Assembly: GCA_947507155.1 (NCBI GenBank)
Contig: CANNOC010000014.1
Span: 1,387 to 65,386 of the forward strand
From: an uncultured Collinsella sp.
GTDB lineage: Bacteria > Actinomycetota > Coriobacteriia > Coriobacteriales > Coriobacteriaceae
Reading direction: 5' to 3'
Length of the DNA: 64,000 nucleotides
Shown here: one piece after another, positions 3,612 through 31,143 of the stretch
Layout: each line of letters opens with the position of its first letter
Numbering within the stretch: the stretch's first letter is position 1
Notes under the pieces: model-generated
Seen by the model: only the letters and a program-made list of their open reading frames with translations
Databases searched by the model: none
What the model was told of the DNA's origin: nothing
Position numbers and translations under genes: made by a program

Positions 3612-3795
3612 ACTGTGTTCCCATCGTCAACACCACCAGGCCGTGCCGGGATACGGCTTGGCCAGATGGCGTCATTTTGTGCGTACATGAATGCGTCTAC
3701 TGTACCCGGCTCGCGCCCCTTCATGACAGGGTTTCGAAAACTCACCCGATTGCAAGGTTTCTGCCTAAACAACAGCGCCCAAACCCGCGACCCGC

Positions 3796-4623
3796 ATGAA
3801 GGCCGATGCTATGCTTAAGCTCAACTGTCCCAAGGAGCACATGCCTATGTCTACGTTTTTAAATGCCAGCCCCATCTTTGGGCCCGTCCGCAGCCGTCGC
3901 TTGGGCCTTTCGCTCGGTGTCAACATGATGCCGGCGAGCGGCAAAATCTGCACGTTCGACTGCATCTACTGCGAGAACGGTCTCAACGCCGAGCACCCCT
4001 GCCACGAGCCGTATAACACGGCTGCCGTGGTGCTCGATGCACTCGAGGCCAAGCTGCACGAGATGGCAATCGAGGGTGAGCTGCCCGATGTAATCACGTT
4101 TGCCGGCAACGGCGAACCAACCGCCGCACCTGAGTTTCCGCAGGCTATCGCCGGTGCCATCGCGCTGCGCGACCAGCTGGCCCCAAACACCAAGATTGCC
4201 GTGCTTTCCAACGGCACGCGCGCCGACCGTCCCCAGGTGCACGATGCACTCATGATGGTCGACGACAACATCCTCAAGCTCGATACGGTCGACCCGGCAT
4301 TTATCCAGCTGCTCGACCAGCCCGTTGGCCCCTACGATGTAGAGCACCAGATAGAGACGTTCGCAAACTTTAACGGTCATGTCATTATCCAGACGATGTT
4401 TTTGAGCGGTGAGTACCGGGGCAAGTCTCTCGATAACACCGGCGAGGAGTACGTTGGCCCTTGGCTCTCGGCGCTCGAGTGCATTCGCCCACAGGAGGCG
4501 ACCATTTACACGGTGGCGCGCGAAACACCGGTCGCCGGCCTTGCTAAAGCGGCGCCCGAGGTGCTCGACAAGATTGCTGCACGCGTGCGCGCCCTCGGCA
4601 TCCCCTGCCAGGTGAGCTACTAG
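3796..4623 (+). CDS. Radical SAM protein of unknown function
   Basis: CTFDCIYC CxxxCxxC, GPVRSRRLGLSLG, GNGEPT; start may be 3841/3847. Confidence 0.85.
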   Translation: MKADAMLKLNCPKEHMPMSTFLNASPIFGPVRSRRLGLSLGVNMMPASGKICTFDCIYCENGLNAEHPCHEPYNTAAVVLDALEAKLHEMAIEGELPDVITFAGNGEPTAAPEFPQAIAGAIALRDQLAPNTKIAVLSNGTRADRPQVHDALMMVDDNILKLDTVDPAFIQLLDQPVGPYDVEHQIETFANFNGHVIIQTMFLSGEYRGKSLDNTGEEYVGPWLSALECIRPQEATIYTVARETPVAGLAKAAPEVLDKIAARVRALGIPCQVSY

Positions 4624-4664
4624 CAAAACCACGCAGCAGCCAGTGCCCGCCATCCCGCCCCATC

Positions 4665-4731
4665 AGTTGCGGTGATATAGTTCCTATTTGTGCTGTTAAA
4701 CCGCTTAAATCGGAACTATATCACCGCAACT
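4665..4731. repeat. Palindromic repeat family D, copy 1
   Basis: AGTTGCGGTGATATAGTTCC / GGAACTATATCACCGCAACT perfect 20-bp arms. Confidence 0.85.
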
Positions 4732-4783
4732 TTTATAGACGCGTGGGTGGGCTATACTAGCTGCGGATGAAAGGAAGTTAGCC

Positions 4784-5671
4784 ATGTTTGACAAAGGACC
4801 CGTGCCCGGCCGCAACGACGCTTGCTGGTGCGGCAGCGGCAAAAAATATAAGAAATGCCATAGCACCTTTGACGAGCGCCTCGAGCGCCTGTGGGAAGAG
4901 GGCTGGGAGGTTCTACCTCGCACGCTCTACAAGACGCCCGCCGATATCGAGGGCATCAAGCGCTCGGCGGCTATCAACGTGGGCGTGCTCGACTACGTAG
5001 GCGAGCACATCGCCGCGGGCATGACCACCAACCAGATTGACCAGATGATCTACGACTACACCGTCGAGCACGGTGGCACGCCGGCCGACCTCAACTACGA
5101 GGGCTACCCCAAGAGCGTATGCACCTCGATCAACGACGTGGTCTGTCACGGTATCCCCTGCGATACGGACGTGCTGCACGAGGGCGACATCATCAACGTC
5201 GACTGCTCCACGATTCTTGACGGCTACTTTAGCGACTCGAGCCGCATGTTCTGCATCGGCGAGGTCTCTGCCGAGCGCCAGCGTCTTGTCGATGTCACCC
5301 GCGCCAGCGTGGAGGCGGGCCTGGCGGCCGTCAAGCCATGGCTGCCGCTGTCCGTTATGGCCGAGGCCGTGCAAAAGACGGTCGAGGACGCCGGCTTTAG
5401 CGTGGTGCGCGAGTACGGCGGACACGGCATTGGCAAGGAGTTCCACGAGGACCCGTTTGTGGGCTTTACCACCGAGGCGCCCGATGTGGACACCATCATG
5501 GCTCCGGGCATGGTCTTTACCATCGAGCCCATGGTCAACGCCGGAGCACCCGACATCAAGATTAGCAAGGGCGACGGTTGGTGCGTGCGCACCAAGGACG
5601 GCAGTGATTCGGCCCAGTGCGAGGTACAGCTCGTGGTGACCGAGGACGGCTACGAGCTGCTGAGCTGGTAG
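4784..5671 (+). CDS. map: Type I methionine aminopeptidase with N-terminal SEC-C zinc motif
   Basis: GRNDACWCGSGKKYKKCH; CTSINDVVCHGIP, DCST, GHGIG, FTIEPM. Confidence 0.93.
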   Translation: MFDKGPVPGRNDACWCGSGKKYKKCHSTFDERLERLWEEGWEVLPRTLYKTPADIEGIKRSAAINVGVLDYVGEHIAAGMTTNQIDQMIYDYTVEHGGTPADLNYEGYPKSVCTSINDVVCHGIPCDTDVLHEGDIINVDCSTILDGYFSDSSRMFCIGEVSAERQRLVDVTRASVEAGLAAVKPWLPLSVMAEAVQKTVEDAGFSVVREYGGHGIGKEFHEDPFVGFTTEAPDVDTIMAPGMVFTIEPMVNAGAPDIKISKGDGWCVRTKDGSDSAQCEVQLVVTEDGYELLSW

Positions 5672-26278: not shown

Positions 26279-27160
26279 ATGATCAAGATCACCGTCCCCG
26301 CCACCAGCGCAAACCTAGGCATCGGCTACGACACCCTCGGCATGGCCGTCAGCCTCTACTCGCACTTCACCTTCGAGCGCGCCGACAAGCTCACCATCAC
26401 GGGCTGCCCCGAGGAGTTCCAAAACGAGAATAACCTGGTCTATGTGAGCTTTGTCGATGCTCTGGCCGCCTGGGGCGAGCCGGCCTTCCCCGTCGCTATC
26501 GACATTCAGACCGACGTGCCCGTCGCCCGCGGCCTGGGTTCCAGCTCCACCTGCGTCGTCGCCGGCATCATGGCGGCCGCCGCGCTGACAGGCCACACCG
26601 TCGACCGCGCCGAACTCGTCCGCATCGCCACCGAGGTCGAGGGCCATCCCGATAACGTCGCCCCCGCCATCCTGGGCGGCGCCGTCTGCTCCTTTACGCC
26701 GACTGATTCGCTCCCCCAGTGCCTGCGCTACGAGGTAAGCGATCGCTTGCGTTTTATTACCGTGATTCCGCCCTACGAGGTGCATACGAGCGAGGCGCGC
26801 AAGGTTGTGCCGCAGGAGATTCCACTCTCCACCGCCGTATGGCAAATGGGCCGCATCGCCGGCATGACGCGCGGCCTGGAGACCGGCGACCTTGACCTGA
26901 TTGCCGCCGCTAATGACGACCGCATTCAGGAGCCCTATCGTCGCCGCCTGATTCCCGACTACAACGCCGTGCGCGACACCTGCCTTAACGGCGGCGCTAA
27001 GACCATCTGGATTAGCGGCTCGGGCTCGACCCTCATGGCTGTGACCGACGACACCATCGTGGCAAAGTTCCTGCAGGTCAAGCTGCGCGAGCAGTTCCCC
27101 AAGTGCGACACGCATATTTTGACGTGCGACACGGAAGGCGCCCAGATCGAATACCTGTAG
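26279..27160 (+). CDS. thrB: Homoserine kinase
   Basis: VPATSANLG, PVARGLGSSS, EGHPDNVAPA, ISGSGST. Confidence 0.95.
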   Translation: MIKITVPATSANLGIGYDTLGMAVSLYSHFTFERADKLTITGCPEEFQNENNLVYVSFVDALAAWGEPAFPVAIDIQTDVPVARGLGSSSTCVVAGIMAAAALTGHTVDRAELVRIATEVEGHPDNVAPAILGGAVCSFTPTDSLPQCLRYEVSDRLRFITVIPPYEVHTSEARKVVPQEIPLSTAVWQMGRIAGMTRGLETGDLDLIAAANDDRIQEPYRRRLIPDYNAVRDTCLNGGAKTIWISGSGSTLMAVTDDTIVAKFLQVKLREQFPKCDTHILTCDTEGAQIEYL

Positions 27161-27336
27161 TCGCCGTCCCGTATACCCGCCGGGGAGGCCAGGGGCTTTG
27201 CCCCCAAATCGTCCTCGGACATGGCAGGACCCCCGCTGCGCACTTCGTGCGGCGGGGGTCCTGCCGTCCTGCGGAAAGATTTGGGGGCAAAGCCCCTGGC
27301 CTCCCCTACGTTAACTTCGCTGGCGGCGGCTACAGG
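27154..27336 (+). repeat. Long nested palindrome family A, copy after thrB
   Basis: Core 27182-27306 with CGTCCTCGGACAT...CTTCG...CGTCCTGCGGAA. Confidence 0.88.
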
Positions 27337-27464
27337 GACCTACACTCTGGAAAGTCGCCGGGCTGATAGTTTGGCTTCTATTTGATAAAGGCGCACTTCC
27401 CACCATCTCATTCGCCCTATAGCTTTGTTTTAATTTCTAATTGATGATCGATGCGTGGCGTCAT

Positions 27465-27743
27465 CTAATTATCTTCGCTACTCAAAACAGCCCCAAGTTT
27501 ACGTACTAGCGTCTCAACAGTAATTCCGAGTGCATCCGCATAGACAAACTGCTCATAAACCCTAAGGCTGCGTTCCCCGGTCTCGACCTTTGAGATGAAC
27601 GACTGAGGTACCCCCAGTTTCTTTGCGAGTTCAACCTGAGTGATACCTTGCTCCCGACGAATCTGGGAAAGGCATTTTCCGCATGTCCTGTTAGCATCAA
27701 CGTTCATGCCGCTTACGCTATATTCCATTTTGATATATCCCAA
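27465..27743 (-). CDS. Small XRE-family HTH regulator
   Basis: IRREQGITQVELAKKLGVPQSFISKVETGER; start uncertain (27743/27728/27707). Confidence 0.82.
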   Translation of the reverse strand: MGYIKMEYSVSGMNVDANRTCGKCLSQIRREQGITQVELAKKLGVPQSFISKVETGERSLRVYEQFVYADALGITVETLVRKLGAVLSSEDN

Positions 27744-27831
27744 ACTGGGATATAGTTATGTCACCGGCCATTTCACCTGCCGTAGCTGTTCGCATAACAC
27801 ACTTAAGTACGGGAAAGGAACCTTGATAAAT

Positions 27832-28827
27832 ATGAGTGACAAGATGAAGGGGCCCGGCGAGTCTGACGAGCGGATGCCGGATATCGAAGAGAGCCAGTTT
27901 TCTGAGGGCGCTGACAACACCCCCCTCCCAGAAGAACAGCCATCTAATGAAGATGGCACCGCATGTAAAAAAGATGAAAGCGCCTCACTTCTAACTCGCG
28001 CTATTCAAAAATTCGGCGGTAAAAAACGGGCAGTCACTGCGGCCGCTGCGTTAGTTATTGTCATTTTCTGTTTGCCCATGATGTTTCCTCAGTTGTTTTG
28101 CACTCACAAGCTATGGGCCAATGCAACCTGTACAAGCCCTCGCACATGTAAAAGTTGCGGCAAAACCGAGGGGGAACCGCTTGGACACGAATGGGAAGAA
28201 GCAACGTGCACGGTTCCGAAGACCTGTCAACGCTGCGGTAAAACCGAGGGGGAACCCCTTGGGCATCAACCGGGCTCGTGGACTACCGAAGTTGACTACG
28301 TGGACGCCACCTCAAAGGAAATACGAGAATGCGAAAAATGCGGAGAGGTCGTTGACACCCGCAACGAGAAGGAAATCACATCTTTTCTTGGCGACGGAAA
28401 GTTTTCAATTTCCCCAAAAGGCTTTATTGATCGACTTAACGAGGAATTCTCCGATATCCCCAATTGCAGCAGCATGAATGCGGATTACGAACTAGACGAT
28501 AGCGGCATGGGACTCGAACTTCAGATCAAAAACGGTTCAAAGATTGCCGGTATTGGAGGCTTCTTTTCGGACTCGAGTAACCCGGTGCTACTCAGCTATC
28601 TTGGATCCGAAAACTGCTTCAAAAACATAGTCATGTACTTCGAAAACTCCGACTATGCCGCGGCGACAGCATTGGCAACTATACAAGCAATCGATCCAAC
28701 ACTTTCGTTTTCAGACGCCAAGGAAGTTGGTGCTGCCTGCGTAGATACGCCAACTGTCAAAAATGGAATTACGTATGCAATCGTAGCTTCGAATGGAGAG
28801 TACTGGCTAAGCGCTCGAATTGAATAA
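27832..28827 (+). CDS. Single-pass membrane protein with His/Cys repeats (possible Zn-binding) and a C-terminal domain of unknown function
   Basis: TM AVTAAAALVIVIFCLPMMF; repeats HxWxxATCTxPxTCxxCGKTEGEPLG x2 plus ECEKCG. Confidence 0.75.
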   Translation: MSDKMKGPGESDERMPDIEESQFSEGADNTPLPEEQPSNEDGTACKKDESASLLTRAIQKFGGKKRAVTAAAALVIVIFCLPMMFPQLFCTHKLWANATCTSPRTCKSCGKTEGEPLGHEWEEATCTVPKTCQRCGKTEGEPLGHQPGSWTTEVDYVDATSKEIRECEKCGEVVDTRNEKEITSFLGDGKFSISPKGFIDRLNEEFSDIPNCSSMNADYELDDSGMGLELQIKNGSKIAGIGGFFSDSSNPVLLSYLGSENCFKNIVMYFENSDYAAATALATIQAIDPTLSFSDAKEVGAACVDTPTVKNGITYAIVASNGEYWLSARIE

Positions 28828-29064
28828 TTTTCTTTGATTACTAAATTCAGACGCCTCTTACTCGCGATATATTAAAACTCAACCCCTGGCAGCATCGTCA
28901 ATCGAAAATTGCCCCGCCGAGCACTTTAGCTTGGCGGGGCATTTCAATATGAAAGCGGATTTAAATATCAACAAGGCCTGCACGCTCCAACGAGACAGCC
29001 GGCTTCGCTGCTCAAATTGCCCTTGGTGAACCACAAGTTGAGCAATCAGTGGCCAGAATCCCCT

Positions 29065-29763
29065 TTAGGCGGCGCTTGTTTCTTTGTATTCGAAGACTGG
29101 TTCTAGGAGGTCTTCGATGTTGCAGTGGAGGGCTTTTGCTATATCCCTTACGGTTGTTACCGAGGCTTCGTTGATGTTTCTCTGGCGTTGCTCGTACATT
29201 TGGATTGAGCGGAGTGACACACCCGATTCGTATGCCAAGTCTTGTTGGGTTTTCTTGAGCCTCTTTCTTGCTAACGCAAGTTTGGTTTGCCTGGACGCTT
29301 TTTTCGCCATATCGCAGACGAGGCGAGCCACGCGTTCCTCCGAGGCTTCGTGCCAGGGGTAGTACAGACTGCGTAGCACATCGAATGGAACGACATGCAG
29401 CAAATCTTCGAAAGACTCTCCTAGCCGCCACTGAAGGTATGCCAATATCCAGCCTGTCCAATATTCCGGTGTCTTTTCGAATCGGTAGGTTCGATTTGGC
29501 ATCGGCCTTGATTGATAGCCCGACCTTTCGGCAATGAGCGCGAACAGCTCAACGCCCGATTTTCCCGACACCACCCATGCGTTGCCGCGTTCAAACTCGC
29601 GGGCTACGCCGCTCAGGCAAAAGAGTTCAGCGACCTCGGACCCTTCCGCTCCATAGTCGTTTACGGCATAGTCAAAACAGTCGCCGAGGTTGCTCATTGC
29701 ATCCTCGAGGTAGTAGACGGGATATGTCCTACTCGGCCCACAATCCGTTAACTCTTGGATCAT
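29065..29763 (-). CDS. Conserved protein with C-terminal XRE HTH (partner of the DUF3990-like gene)
   Basis: YLEDAMSNLGDCFDYA N-terminus; LARKRLKKTQQDLAYESGVSLRSIQMYEQ HTH; 35-nt overlap with the upstream gene. Confidence 0.78.
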   Translation of the reverse strand: MIQELTDCGPSRTYPVYYLEDAMSNLGDCFDYAVNDYGAEGSEVAELFCLSGVAREFERGNAWVVSGKSGVELFALIAERSGYQSRPMPNRTYRFEKTPEYWTGWILAYLQWRLGESFEDLLHVVPFDVLRSLYYPWHEASEERVARLVCDMAKKASRQTKLALARKRLKKTQQDLAYESGVSLRSIQMYEQRQRNINEASVTTVRDIAKALHCNIEDLLEPVFEYKETSAA

Positions 29764-30412
29764 TTAAATCAACCCTCCCTGCCATTAAATCCCTAATGTA
29801 GACACCCTCAGAGTCGAATCCATTCACAGTTTCCAAGTACTTGCGCCGCGCGCTCTGCTCTCGCTTAAAGCGCTTGGGATAATACACAGATCCCAACGCC
29901 TGCTTCCATTCGCAGAATCTGATTGCTGAGAACGCACGCTCACTCATAAGAGCGTATTGGATGCCCAAATCGCCCAAACGCATAATGAGTTGCAGTTGTC
30001 TAAGCGAGATCATGCCGTTAACGAACTGTCTTGCAAACGAAAAGTAGGAATCGTCGGCGCGATAGCCTCGGATAACGTCATAGGGAGAAATATCAATCAG
30101 GCAGTTATCCAGCAGATAGCGAAGCCCTTCGCGCGCCAGCGGTGTCGAAACATTGAACTCCCTATTGTTAGCCAAAATCGCGAGCCAATTGAGAATTGAA
30201 AACTCCCCGGACTCCAAATCCAAGACCGCGAGACCATCCATATCGAGCTCATATCGATTCGCGATACCATCGGACTCGGTCCGACATGCCCACTCCATTG
30301 CCATTTCCTCATGTGGCGTGCAATAAAACCCACACCCATAGTCATTGAATTGTCTGCATTTTTCCAACGACGGATGCTCGACAACAGCCTCCGACCCGTG
30401 CCAAAGCTCCAT
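29729..30412 (-). CDS. DUF3990-like protein (possible ADP-ribosyltransferase fold)
   Basis: LWHGS...NDYGCGFYCT...AMEWA...YDVIRGYRADDSYFSFA; GGAGG RBS before ATG 30412; family recognised from memory. Confidence 0.75.
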   Translation of the reverse strand: MELWHGSEAVVEHPSLEKCRQFNDYGCGFYCTPHEEMAMEWACRTESDGIANRYELDMDGLAVLDLESGEFSILNWLAILANNREFNVSTPLAREGLRYLLDNCLIDISPYDVIRGYRADDSYFSFARQFVNGMISLRQLQLIMRLGDLGIQYALMSERAFSAIRFCEWKQALGSVYYPKRFKREQSARRKYLETVNGFDSEGVYIRDLMAGRVDLNDPRVNGLWAE

Positions 30413-30430
30413 ATCGACCTCCAAACAAAA

Positions 30431-30477
30431 ATATCACCCCAGTGATAGTGTAGCAATAACTATCACTGGGGTGATAT
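30431..30477. promoter_or_regulatory. Nested double operator-like palindrome
   Basis: Perfect 19-bp inverted repeat ATATCACCCCAGTGATAGT-N9-ACTATCACTGGGGTGATAT; each arm contains TATCAC-N4-GTGATA. Confidence 0.7.
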
Positions 30478-30513
30478 AGATAGATGCAAACTATTGCCTG
30501 CCAAGAGCCCTTA

Positions 30514-31104
30514 TTAGAGGCAAGCCTCCGCAATGCGGCGCTTGAGCTCGTCGATGCCGGCGCCGGTTTGGGAGCTTGTGATGATCACGTTCTCGGCAGG
30601 GACGTTGAGCTGCTTTTTGATGGCCGCTGCCTGGCGGGCCTGCTGGGTGCGGCTGAGCTTGTCGGCCTTGGTGAGGCAGACGATAAAGTTGAACTCGTTG
30701 CCCTGCAGGTAGTCGATCATGTCATGGTCGAGCTTACTGGGATCATGGCGAATGTCCACCAGCGATACAACCAGGTTAAAGCTGCGCTCGGAGTCGAAGA
30801 AGTCGCCGATGAGCTCGGCCCAGCGGTCGCGCTCGGCCTTGGAACGGCGGGCGAAACCGTAACCCGGCAGGTCAACAAAGTGCACGTCGTCGGCCTCGAA
30901 GAAGTTAATGTTGCTCGTCTTGCCCGGTGTGCTCGAAACCTTGACGAGGTTCTTGCGGCCAAAAAGCTTGTTCATGATCGACGACTTGCCCACGTTGGAG
31001 CGGCCGACGAAGCTCACCTCGGGGCAGGTGGACTCGGGAATCTGTGAAACCTTGCCATAGCTGGCAACGAACTTGGCAAGCTGGTAGTTAATGGAATCGG
31101 CCAT
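30514..31104 (-). CDS. engB: Ribosome biogenesis GTPase YihA/YsxC
   Basis: GRSNVGKSS, STPGKT, DLPGYG, TKAD. Confidence 0.95.
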   Translation of the reverse strand: MADSINYQLAKFVASYGKVSQIPESTCPEVSFVGRSNVGKSSIMNKLFGRKNLVKVSSTPGKTSNINFFEADDVHFVDLPGYGFARRSKAERDRWAELIGDFFDSERSFNLVVSLVDIRHDPSKLDHDMIDYLQGNEFNFIVCLTKADKLSRTQQARQAAAIKKQLNVPAENVIITSSQTGAGIDELKRRIAEACL

Positions 31105-31143
31105 GGACACTCCTTGGTCGTAGGTTCTTACAAAAAGAGCGCG

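Follow-up and report, generated by a model that had tools for sequence, protein, structure and literature searches.

What do two overlapping genes in a 64,000-nucleotide (nt) stretch of Collinsella DNA (hereafter the window, in whose coordinates all positions are given) do for the cell that carries them? Both genes lie on the minus strand; the first (gene 1) encodes a protein of the DUF3990 family, and the second (gene 2, the partner) encodes a protein with a helix-turn-helix (HTH) domain. A preliminary description had proposed that the pair consists of an ADP-ribosyltransferase (ART)-like effector and a DNA-binding antitoxin or regulator. On balance we favor, as fairly probable, a type II toxin-antitoxin-style module in which an ART-fold toxin is made together with a coupled partner that neutralizes it and represses transcription of the pair. 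The toxin-only deletions, selection estimates and operator/recognition-helix code described below are additions of the present analysis; the ART assignment of DUF3990 was already known via its Pfam clan.

What the preliminary description had read directly from the letters was borne out. The two genes share 35 nt, gene 1 (said to start LWHGS and to contain GFYCT) begins MELWHGS and carries GFYCT at residues 28 to 32, and gene 2 (said to have an N-domain of ~160 amino acids [aa] and a C-terminal XRE HTH) matches Pfam HTH_3 at residues 163 to 219 (E 1.5e-7), after an N-domain of ~155 residues. The open reading frame (ORF) of gene 1 spans 29729..30424 in the ORF listing, and the ATG at 30412 was chosen as its start. 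The overlap implies that the two genes are translationally coupled, because the ribosome-binding site (RBS) and ATG of the partner sit inside the 3' end of the toxin gene. The NCBI annotation of a near-identical Collinsella aerofaciens record (NZ_OY725717.1; gene at 4216-4848 of the locus compared) places the partner start 22 codons later, giving a protein of 210 aa and no overlap. Comparison of homologues favors the longer, overlapping form over the annotated one, because residues 10 to 22 are conserved across phyla (Y14 and A22 in ≥90%), because the match to the PADLOC model PDC-M42B begins at residue 12, and because every natural deletion that we describe below ends before the upstream RBS and ATG.

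The arrangement is not peculiar to Collinsella. We assembled 40 diverse loci from several phyla (37 drawn from the 80 found in other organisms, and three added to them), with sources in Clostridia, Erysipelotrichales, Parasutterella, Oxalobacter, Treponema, Sphaerochaeta, Lentisphaerota and Elusimicrobia, and in all 40 a partner homologue lay downstream of the DUF3990 gene and overlapped it by 17 nt or more. The partner HTH was present in 37 of them, and two of the three exceptions run off a contig edge. With this recurrence and the full-length DUF3990 match of gene 1 given next, the observation is far beyond chance.

What, then, is the product of gene 1? The protein matches Pfam DUF3990 (PF13151) over model positions 1 to 152 of 152, with an E value of 1.7e-41 and 141.8 bits (cut-off, 32.2), and PADLOC PDC-M42A over nearly its full length (E 4.9e-36); NCBIfam and PHROGs searches returned nothing for it. 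Residues 167 to 227 form a helical extension past the Pfam model. DUF3990 is a member of Pfam's ART clan (PMC7955679), and it has been described as the C-terminal, toxin-position domain of type VI secretion system (T6SS) Rhs effectors, with no function given (PMC4524185, PMC10763514, PMC12165300). The searchable literature that mentions the domain assigns it no function, in agreement with the preliminary description, whose author had known of no functional characterization. An AlphaFold2 model built on an alignment of 76 diverse homologues, picked from 1926 cluster representatives, has seven strands followed by the C-terminal helical extension (mean predicted local distance difference test [pLDDT] score, 95.2; predicted template-modeling score [pTM], 0.90). 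In the Foldseek comparison with ART structures that had been proposed, the best named neighbors of this model were ART folds: among predicted viral structures (BFVD) the best was ART-PolyVal-like (E 2.4e-4, probability 1.0), with giant-virus PARP domains next, and in the PDB the best matches, at E 0.2 or worse and a template-modeling (TM) score of ~0.3, were mostly ART folds, among them PARP-2, PARP-4, diphtheria-toxin homologues, CARDS, tankyrase, Arr (2hw2) and Tpt1. As far as computation reaches, an ART-type fold is supported.

Conservation among the 76 homologues points to a candidate active site within this predicted fold. H5 and G6 are each conserved in 75 of 76 sequences and S/T7 in 72, all three in strand 1 of the model (residues 2 to 7); Y30, in strand 2 (residues 29 to 32), is conserved in all 76, as are D112, directly before the strand at 113 to 117, and D120. 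The ART catalytic acid lies just before strand 5, and because the strand at 113 to 117 corresponds to it, the active site is probably H5, Y30 and D112 (H-Y-D), the role of D112 being the inferred part. The ART reading of the preliminary description therefore stands as regards the ART-type fold and the H-G-S and G-F-Y-x-T motifs, but the third catalytic residue is probably Asp112 and not the Glu of the H-Y-E clade. A search for ART-PolyVal (PF18760), on which the triad might have been mapped, gave a match in 1 of 301 genomes, too few for an alignment.

Fold class alone does not fix chemistry, and gene 1 could have an ART fold without ADP-ribose transfer, either degrading NAD+ or acting as a pseudo-enzyme that binds ADP-ribose or NAD+, with the pair still serving as a toxin-antitoxin or defense pair. 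RES-domain toxins of the ART clan are reported to degrade NAD+, and both the probable Asp in place of Glu as the third catalytic residue and the only moderate structural similarity to true transferases would suit such a protein. Against it, H-G-S and G-F-Y-x-T are motifs of the diphtheria-toxin/PARP-clade transferases, a comparison made with PARP1 and diphtheria toxin, and we think that the loss of transfer activity is decidedly unlikely.

If gene 1 encodes a toxin and gene 2 its antidote, the two genes should differ in how they can be lost. Each protein served as a query against 200 species-level Collinsella genomes. A full-length toxin orthologue with an adjacent partner orthologue was present in 92 genomes (a contig end truncates the partner in three of these). 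In another 18 the partner was intact, and of the toxin there was either a 3' remnant or nothing, whereas none of the 200 had an intact toxin with a broken or missing partner. The toxin remnants start at residue 146, 171/172 or 199 or consist of the last dozen codons only, and 2 of the 18 toxin-less genomes gave only a weak toxin match. Junctions read in seven genomes revealed at least four distinct deletions. Every deletion read leaves at least 35 nt of the toxin 3' end, with the partner RBS and start codon, and both of the operators described below are retained in two deletion classes. At loci where both genes are intact, the median ratio of nonsynonymous to synonymous substitution rates (dN/dS) is 0.056 for each gene at a synonymous divergence (dS) of ~0.55, indicating strong purifying selection. 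As judged from these genomes, most lineages have a working toxin gene, which is losable only while the partner stays, as a toxin and an antidote predict. The toxin-antitoxin pairing proposed in the preliminary description thus gains a polarity, which rests on the 18 toxin-less versus 0 partner-less genomes and on the purifying selection acting on both intact genes; the promoter palindromes and their covariation with the partner, described below, are a third line of support.

The same survey bears on the possibility that gene 1 is not a toxin at all but an enzyme that ADP-ribosylates some dispensable target or a small molecule, in the way that Arr acts on rifamycins, with the partner as a ligand-sensing repressor. 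The architecture of the partner is that of a one-component regulator, Arr is in the Foldseek list, and the Arr structure reportedly has a triad resembling the predicted H-Y-D of gene 1. However, 18 toxin-less versus 0 partner-less genomes would be unexpected for an enzyme and its regulator, an hhalign comparison with Arr was negative, DUF3990 occupies the toxin position of Rhs effectors, and on plasmids short DUF3990 proteins have DUF3791 as their partner next to ParA, an arrangement that resembles addiction modules. We regard a non-toxic enzyme as highly improbable.

We then asked how the partner might act. The AlphaFold2 model of gene 2 is all-helical (pLDDT 92.6). The claim that the partner binds DNA is upheld by the HTH_3 match and by Foldseek, which aligned ~60 C-terminal residues with C.AhdI, 434 Cro, P22 c2, SinR and HigA2 at TM scores of 0.6 to 0.9; HipB was also among the structural and profile matches to the HTH region. 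Generic HTH matches were all that NCBIfam and PHROGs returned for gene 2, and Foldseek and PDB profile searches with the partner likewise gave HTH matches only, with no solved relative for the N-domain. That domain matched a Pfam family in 0 of 59 homologues, and the PADLOC model PDC-M42B recognized 46 of the 59 family members; it matches the window partner at E 4.8e-8 (residues 12 to 140). No similarity of the N-domain to DUF3791 was detected (hhalign probability against a Bacteroides DUF3791 protein, 0.07; Pfam, 0 of 59).

Palindromes in front of gene 1 indicate what the HTH would recognize. Defining a candidate operator as a 6-N4-6 palindrome with at most one mismatch within 110 nt of the gene 1 start, we found at least one in 40 of 41 loci, compared with 21.8 on average and no more than 33 in shuffled controls. 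The window has two such predicted sites, each the exact reverse complement of the other (see the table). In many Bacillota copies, TTGACA is followed after 3 nt by site 1, which ends in the -10 element (TATAAT), and the second site lies 29 bp downstream, just before the RBS. The half-sites vary between loci, agree within a locus and track the recognition helix of the partner: TATCAC accompanies RSIQMYEQR in all six loci concerned (Collinsella and Clostridia), TACTTC accompanies NLRTLQQYE in nearly all of about 15 loci, and TAACTC/GAGATA accompanies LRMIQQYEQR in four loci, while TAATAC, TACTCC and TGTCGT accompany other recognition helices. This covariation of half-site and helix argues strongly, on comparative grounds, for binding of the partner to its own promoter, a predicted autoregulation that agrees with the regulator role first proposed for gene 2.

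In Collinsella, the two sites together form a 19-bp perfect inverted repeat that, with a U-run in the engB transcript, would fold into a hairpin (-31.4 kcal/mol). Across 44 Collinsella loci it exists in 10 variants, among which two double changes are fully compensatory and one change gives G-U; Bacillota copies do not preserve complementarity of the central four bases between the sites. The hairpin is probably also a terminator or insulator for engB, a second, local role in Collinsella, because insertion of the cassette displaced engB's own terminator. That the palindrome is solely an engB terminator was rejected, given homologous loci with single or noncomplementary promoter sites and sites that track the HTH sequence. 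Between the operators, in the hairpin loop, lies a possible extended -10 element, TGCTACACT, at whose place other Collinsella alleles have TGGTAAACT; transcripts starting from this candidate would be without the 5' arm of the hairpin. A hand-assigned promoter (TTGCAT/GATAGT) was dropped for its 19-nt spacer in preference to the possible extended -10.

Taken together, these results suggest the following scheme. Gene 1 would be an NAD+-using ART-fold enzyme whose action modifies or depletes an essential target, with His5 on strand 1, Tyr30 on strand 2 and Asp112 at the entry of strand 5 as its candidate active site. Gene 2, translationally coupled to gene 1, would supply a protein whose helical N-domain binds and neutralizes the toxin and whose C-terminal XRE HTH, as a dimer, would bind the two 16-bp palindromes bracketing the promoter, so that transcription of the two genes is self-repressed. 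Read-through from engB would in Collinsella be stopped by the 19-bp hairpin and U-run, so that the cassette alone controls its expression. The toxin would be freed if the partner were lost or titrated, for instance on phage infection or loss of a mobile element. The role is likely to be abortive-infection-type defense or stabilization of mobile DNA. The comparisons show the fold class, the conservation of the motifs, the coupling of the genes, mobility, decay of the toxin alone, purifying selection and covariation of operator and recognition helix; enzymatic activity, catalysis by Asp112, direct contact of the N-domain with the toxin, the trigger and the role in the cell (defense or stabilization) are inferred.

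Several observations weigh against this scheme. No PDB structure matched the gene 1 model at E ≤ 0.001 in Foldseek, and sequence and profile searches of the PDB found no solved ART. Comparison by hhalign of the DUF3990 alignment with our own alignments of Arr (10 sequences) and DarT (8 sequences, impure) gave probabilities below 1%, a weak negative given how small these alignments are. The gene 1 protein is acidic (isoelectric point, 5.0), unlike ARTs that modify nucleic acids, and its acidity would also suit the non-toxic enzyme considered above. The 18 toxin-less genomes are related species and count as at least four events, not 18. A scan for consensus sigma-70 promoters upstream of Collinsella gene 1 detected none. 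Finally, the N-domain of the partner is as constrained as the toxin (dN/dS 0.05), which is unusual for an antitoxin, and contains invariant polar residues (S51, E72, Y101, H138 and E139); both features fit an enzyme as well as a binder.

The last points raise the possibility of an enzymatic antidote comparable to DarG in its pairing with DarT, in which the N-domain would be a new all-helical enzyme that removes the modification made by DUF3990 instead of inhibiting the toxin stoichiometrically, with the HTH still autoregulating. Besides the strong purifying selection and the polar residues, the invariance of G60, G67, G70 and W102 and an N-domain identity of 33 to 43% across phyla would be in keeping with it. 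The N-domain, however, has no recognizable catalytic motif and no similarity to hydrolases by Pfam, PDB profile or Foldseek, and antitoxins that act by binding typically show such tight translational coupling and a 1:1 arrangement of genes. We consider an enzymatic partner rather improbable and retain neutralization by binding as the preferred reading.

Table. Positions of the features discussed, in window coordinates
Feature	Position	Strand	Remarks
Gene 1	29729..30412	-	DUF3990 protein, 227 aa + stop; predicted ART-fold toxin
Gene 1 RBS	30418..30422	-	GGAGG, 6 nt before ATG
Gene 2 (partner)	29065..29763	-	232 aa + stop; predicted antitoxin and repressor
Partner N-domain	29299..29763	-	~residues 1-155; all-helical; presumed toxin-neutralizing domain
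Partner C-terminal XRE/Cro-type HTH	29068..29298	-	recognition helix ~residues 183-193
Gene overlap	29729..29763	-	35 nt, common to both ORFs; partner RBS GGGAGGG and ATG within toxin 3' end
Operator site 1 (promoter side)	30461..30476	-	16-bp palindrome TATCAC-N4-GTGATA; predicted
Operator site 2 (RBS side)	30432..30447	-	exact reverse complement of site 1; predicted
19-bp perfect inverted repeat	30431..30477	-	formed by both operator sites; followed by U-run in engB transcript; fold -31.4 kcal/mol
Possible extended -10	30447..30455	-	TGCTACACT in gene orientation, between operator sites (hairpin loop); uncertain
Imported two-gene module	29064..30505	.	1.45 kb; ~50% GC; extent relative to empty thrB-engB sites
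thrB	26279-27160		left flank
engB/yihA	30514-31110		right flank
Second low-GC cassette	27378-29063		
Small XRE repressor gene of second cassette	27465-27743	-	divergent from the next gene
Membrane-anchored protein gene of second cassette	27829-28827	+	332 aa
Long imperfect palindromic element	27160-27380		follows thrB

How does the cassette relate to known systems? By its sequence matches it is a member of a catalogued candidate family, Pfam DUF3990 together with PADLOC PDC-M42 A and B. The PADLOC PDC systems are 145 predicted candidates, identified because they sit within BREX, DISARM and type I restriction-modification (RM) loci (bioRxiv 10.1101/2024.01.29.577857). Gene 1 matches PDC-M42A and the partner N-domain PDC-M42B, and, in line with the guilt-by-embedding method, specificity genes of type I RM systems lie next to some relatives; unlike PDC-M42, however, the B-type domain in the window is fused to an XRE HTH, and the cassette is not embedded in a defense system. 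DUF3791-DUF3990 pairs (PDC-M13/PDC-M10), on Bacteroidales and Clostridium plasmids, share the toxin family, a tightly coupled small helical partner and mobile carriage, but there the toxin is short (~160 aa) and lacks the C-terminal helical extension, and the DUF3791 partner is upstream and without an HTH. Because the long form of DUF3990 goes with the HTH-fused partner and the short form with DUF3791, the C-terminal extension of gene 1 suggests itself as a docking surface for the partner.

The cassette shares its general logic with two known types of module and is a member of neither. RES-Xre systems (ParST, MbcTA) combine an ART-clan toxin with an antitoxin made of an XRE HTH and a neutralizing domain under palindromic operator control; they differ in having a RES rather than a DUF3990 toxin, the reverse gene order, an N-terminal rather than C-terminal HTH and an unrelated neutralizing domain. 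DarTG is likewise a two-gene, mobile, defense-linked module with an ART-fold toxin of the H-Y-E clade; the hhalign probability against our small, impure DarT alignment was 0.8%, and the window partner is helical with an HTH, in place of a macrodomain or NADAR antidote. The borders of the module enclose two genes only, and NADAR (PF08719) had no match in the source genome, which is 99.8% complete. The DUF3990 domains at the C termini of Rhs proteins of Serratia and Enterobacter (T6SS) are the same Pfam domain in toxin position, and a small gene with a putative immunity function comes next, but they are delivered between cells as polymorphic toxins, whereas the window protein stands alone and is predicted to be cytoplasmic and self-regulated (PMC4524185, PMC10763514).

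DUF3990 cassettes are widespread in gut bacteria: the homologue search yielded 6127 clusters at 90% identity and 1926 at 50%, and about half of the sampled Collinsella species have one. Identifying the DUF3990 target would annotate thousands of genes and would decide whether PDC-M10, M13 and M42 are real defense systems. The locus lends itself to such tests: its two-gene module is minimal, its borders are defined, predictions exist for the active site (H5, Y30, D112) and for the operator code, and the natural, isogenic-like toxin-deleted Collinsella variants would be ready-made controls. A bolder proposal is that DUF3990 is an ART with a class of target new to toxin-antitoxin and defense systems and that the partner N-domain is a new antidote, either a new fold of ADP-ribosyl-removing enzyme or a sensor that frees the toxin on phage infection. 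We hold this to be unlikely; if true, a very common cassette of the gut microbiome would represent a new anti-phage or abortive-infection mechanism.

The surroundings of the pair indicate how it arrived. The module lies in a low-GC stretch (~46-53% GC, compared with 60-66% in the flanks) between thrB and engB/yihA, and this site occurs in three states. It is empty in four genomes of the same genus, where the two genes are ~265 bp apart; it contains the two-gene module alone in three others; and in the window the module is accompanied by a further cassette of 1.7 kb. Where the module occurs alone, the insert lies between the true engB 3' end and a degenerate copy of it (~24 of 31 bases identical by eye; 30490-30530 in the window), and empty sites have a single copy of the engB 3' end. 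As read from these sites, the module is an imported unit inserted at the engB 3' end, because the module-only insert is flanked by that end and its degenerate copy. Some relatives of the module are found beside transposase, TnpV or type I RM specificity genes, and relatives are also found on plasmids.

The duplication of the engB end looks att-type; the module contains no recombinase. A homologous cassette in Hominifimenecus lies just downstream of a tRNA-like sequence (3655-3730 of that locus, recognized by eye only); tRNA genes are a common integration target. The second low-GC cassette of the window stands in place of 66 nt that bear the left repeat in module-only genomes, and it consists of a small XRE repressor gene divergent from a gene for a membrane-anchored protein with repeated Cys motifs and no Pfam family. 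It is also found next to toxin-deleted partners at two loci. Between thrB and this cassette, and likewise in the empty-site loci, is a long imperfect palindromic element whose arms differ between genomes and remain complementary.

Paralogues of the pair also occur in Collinsella. A second DUF3990/partner pair, 45 to 50% identical, is present elsewhere in about 38 of the 200 genomes, and several further genomes have the paralogous partner alone. The source genome itself carries a second partner on contig 24 (26500-31500), a protein of 229 aa with 38% identity that matches PDC-M42B and HTH_3; any toxin-like remnant upstream of it is weak (E 0.021). The paralogous family thus repeats the pattern of a partner kept without its toxin. 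This paralogous partner adjoins a gene of the Fic/Doc family and a gene for an AAA_21 ATPase, and the region may be a small toxin or defense island.

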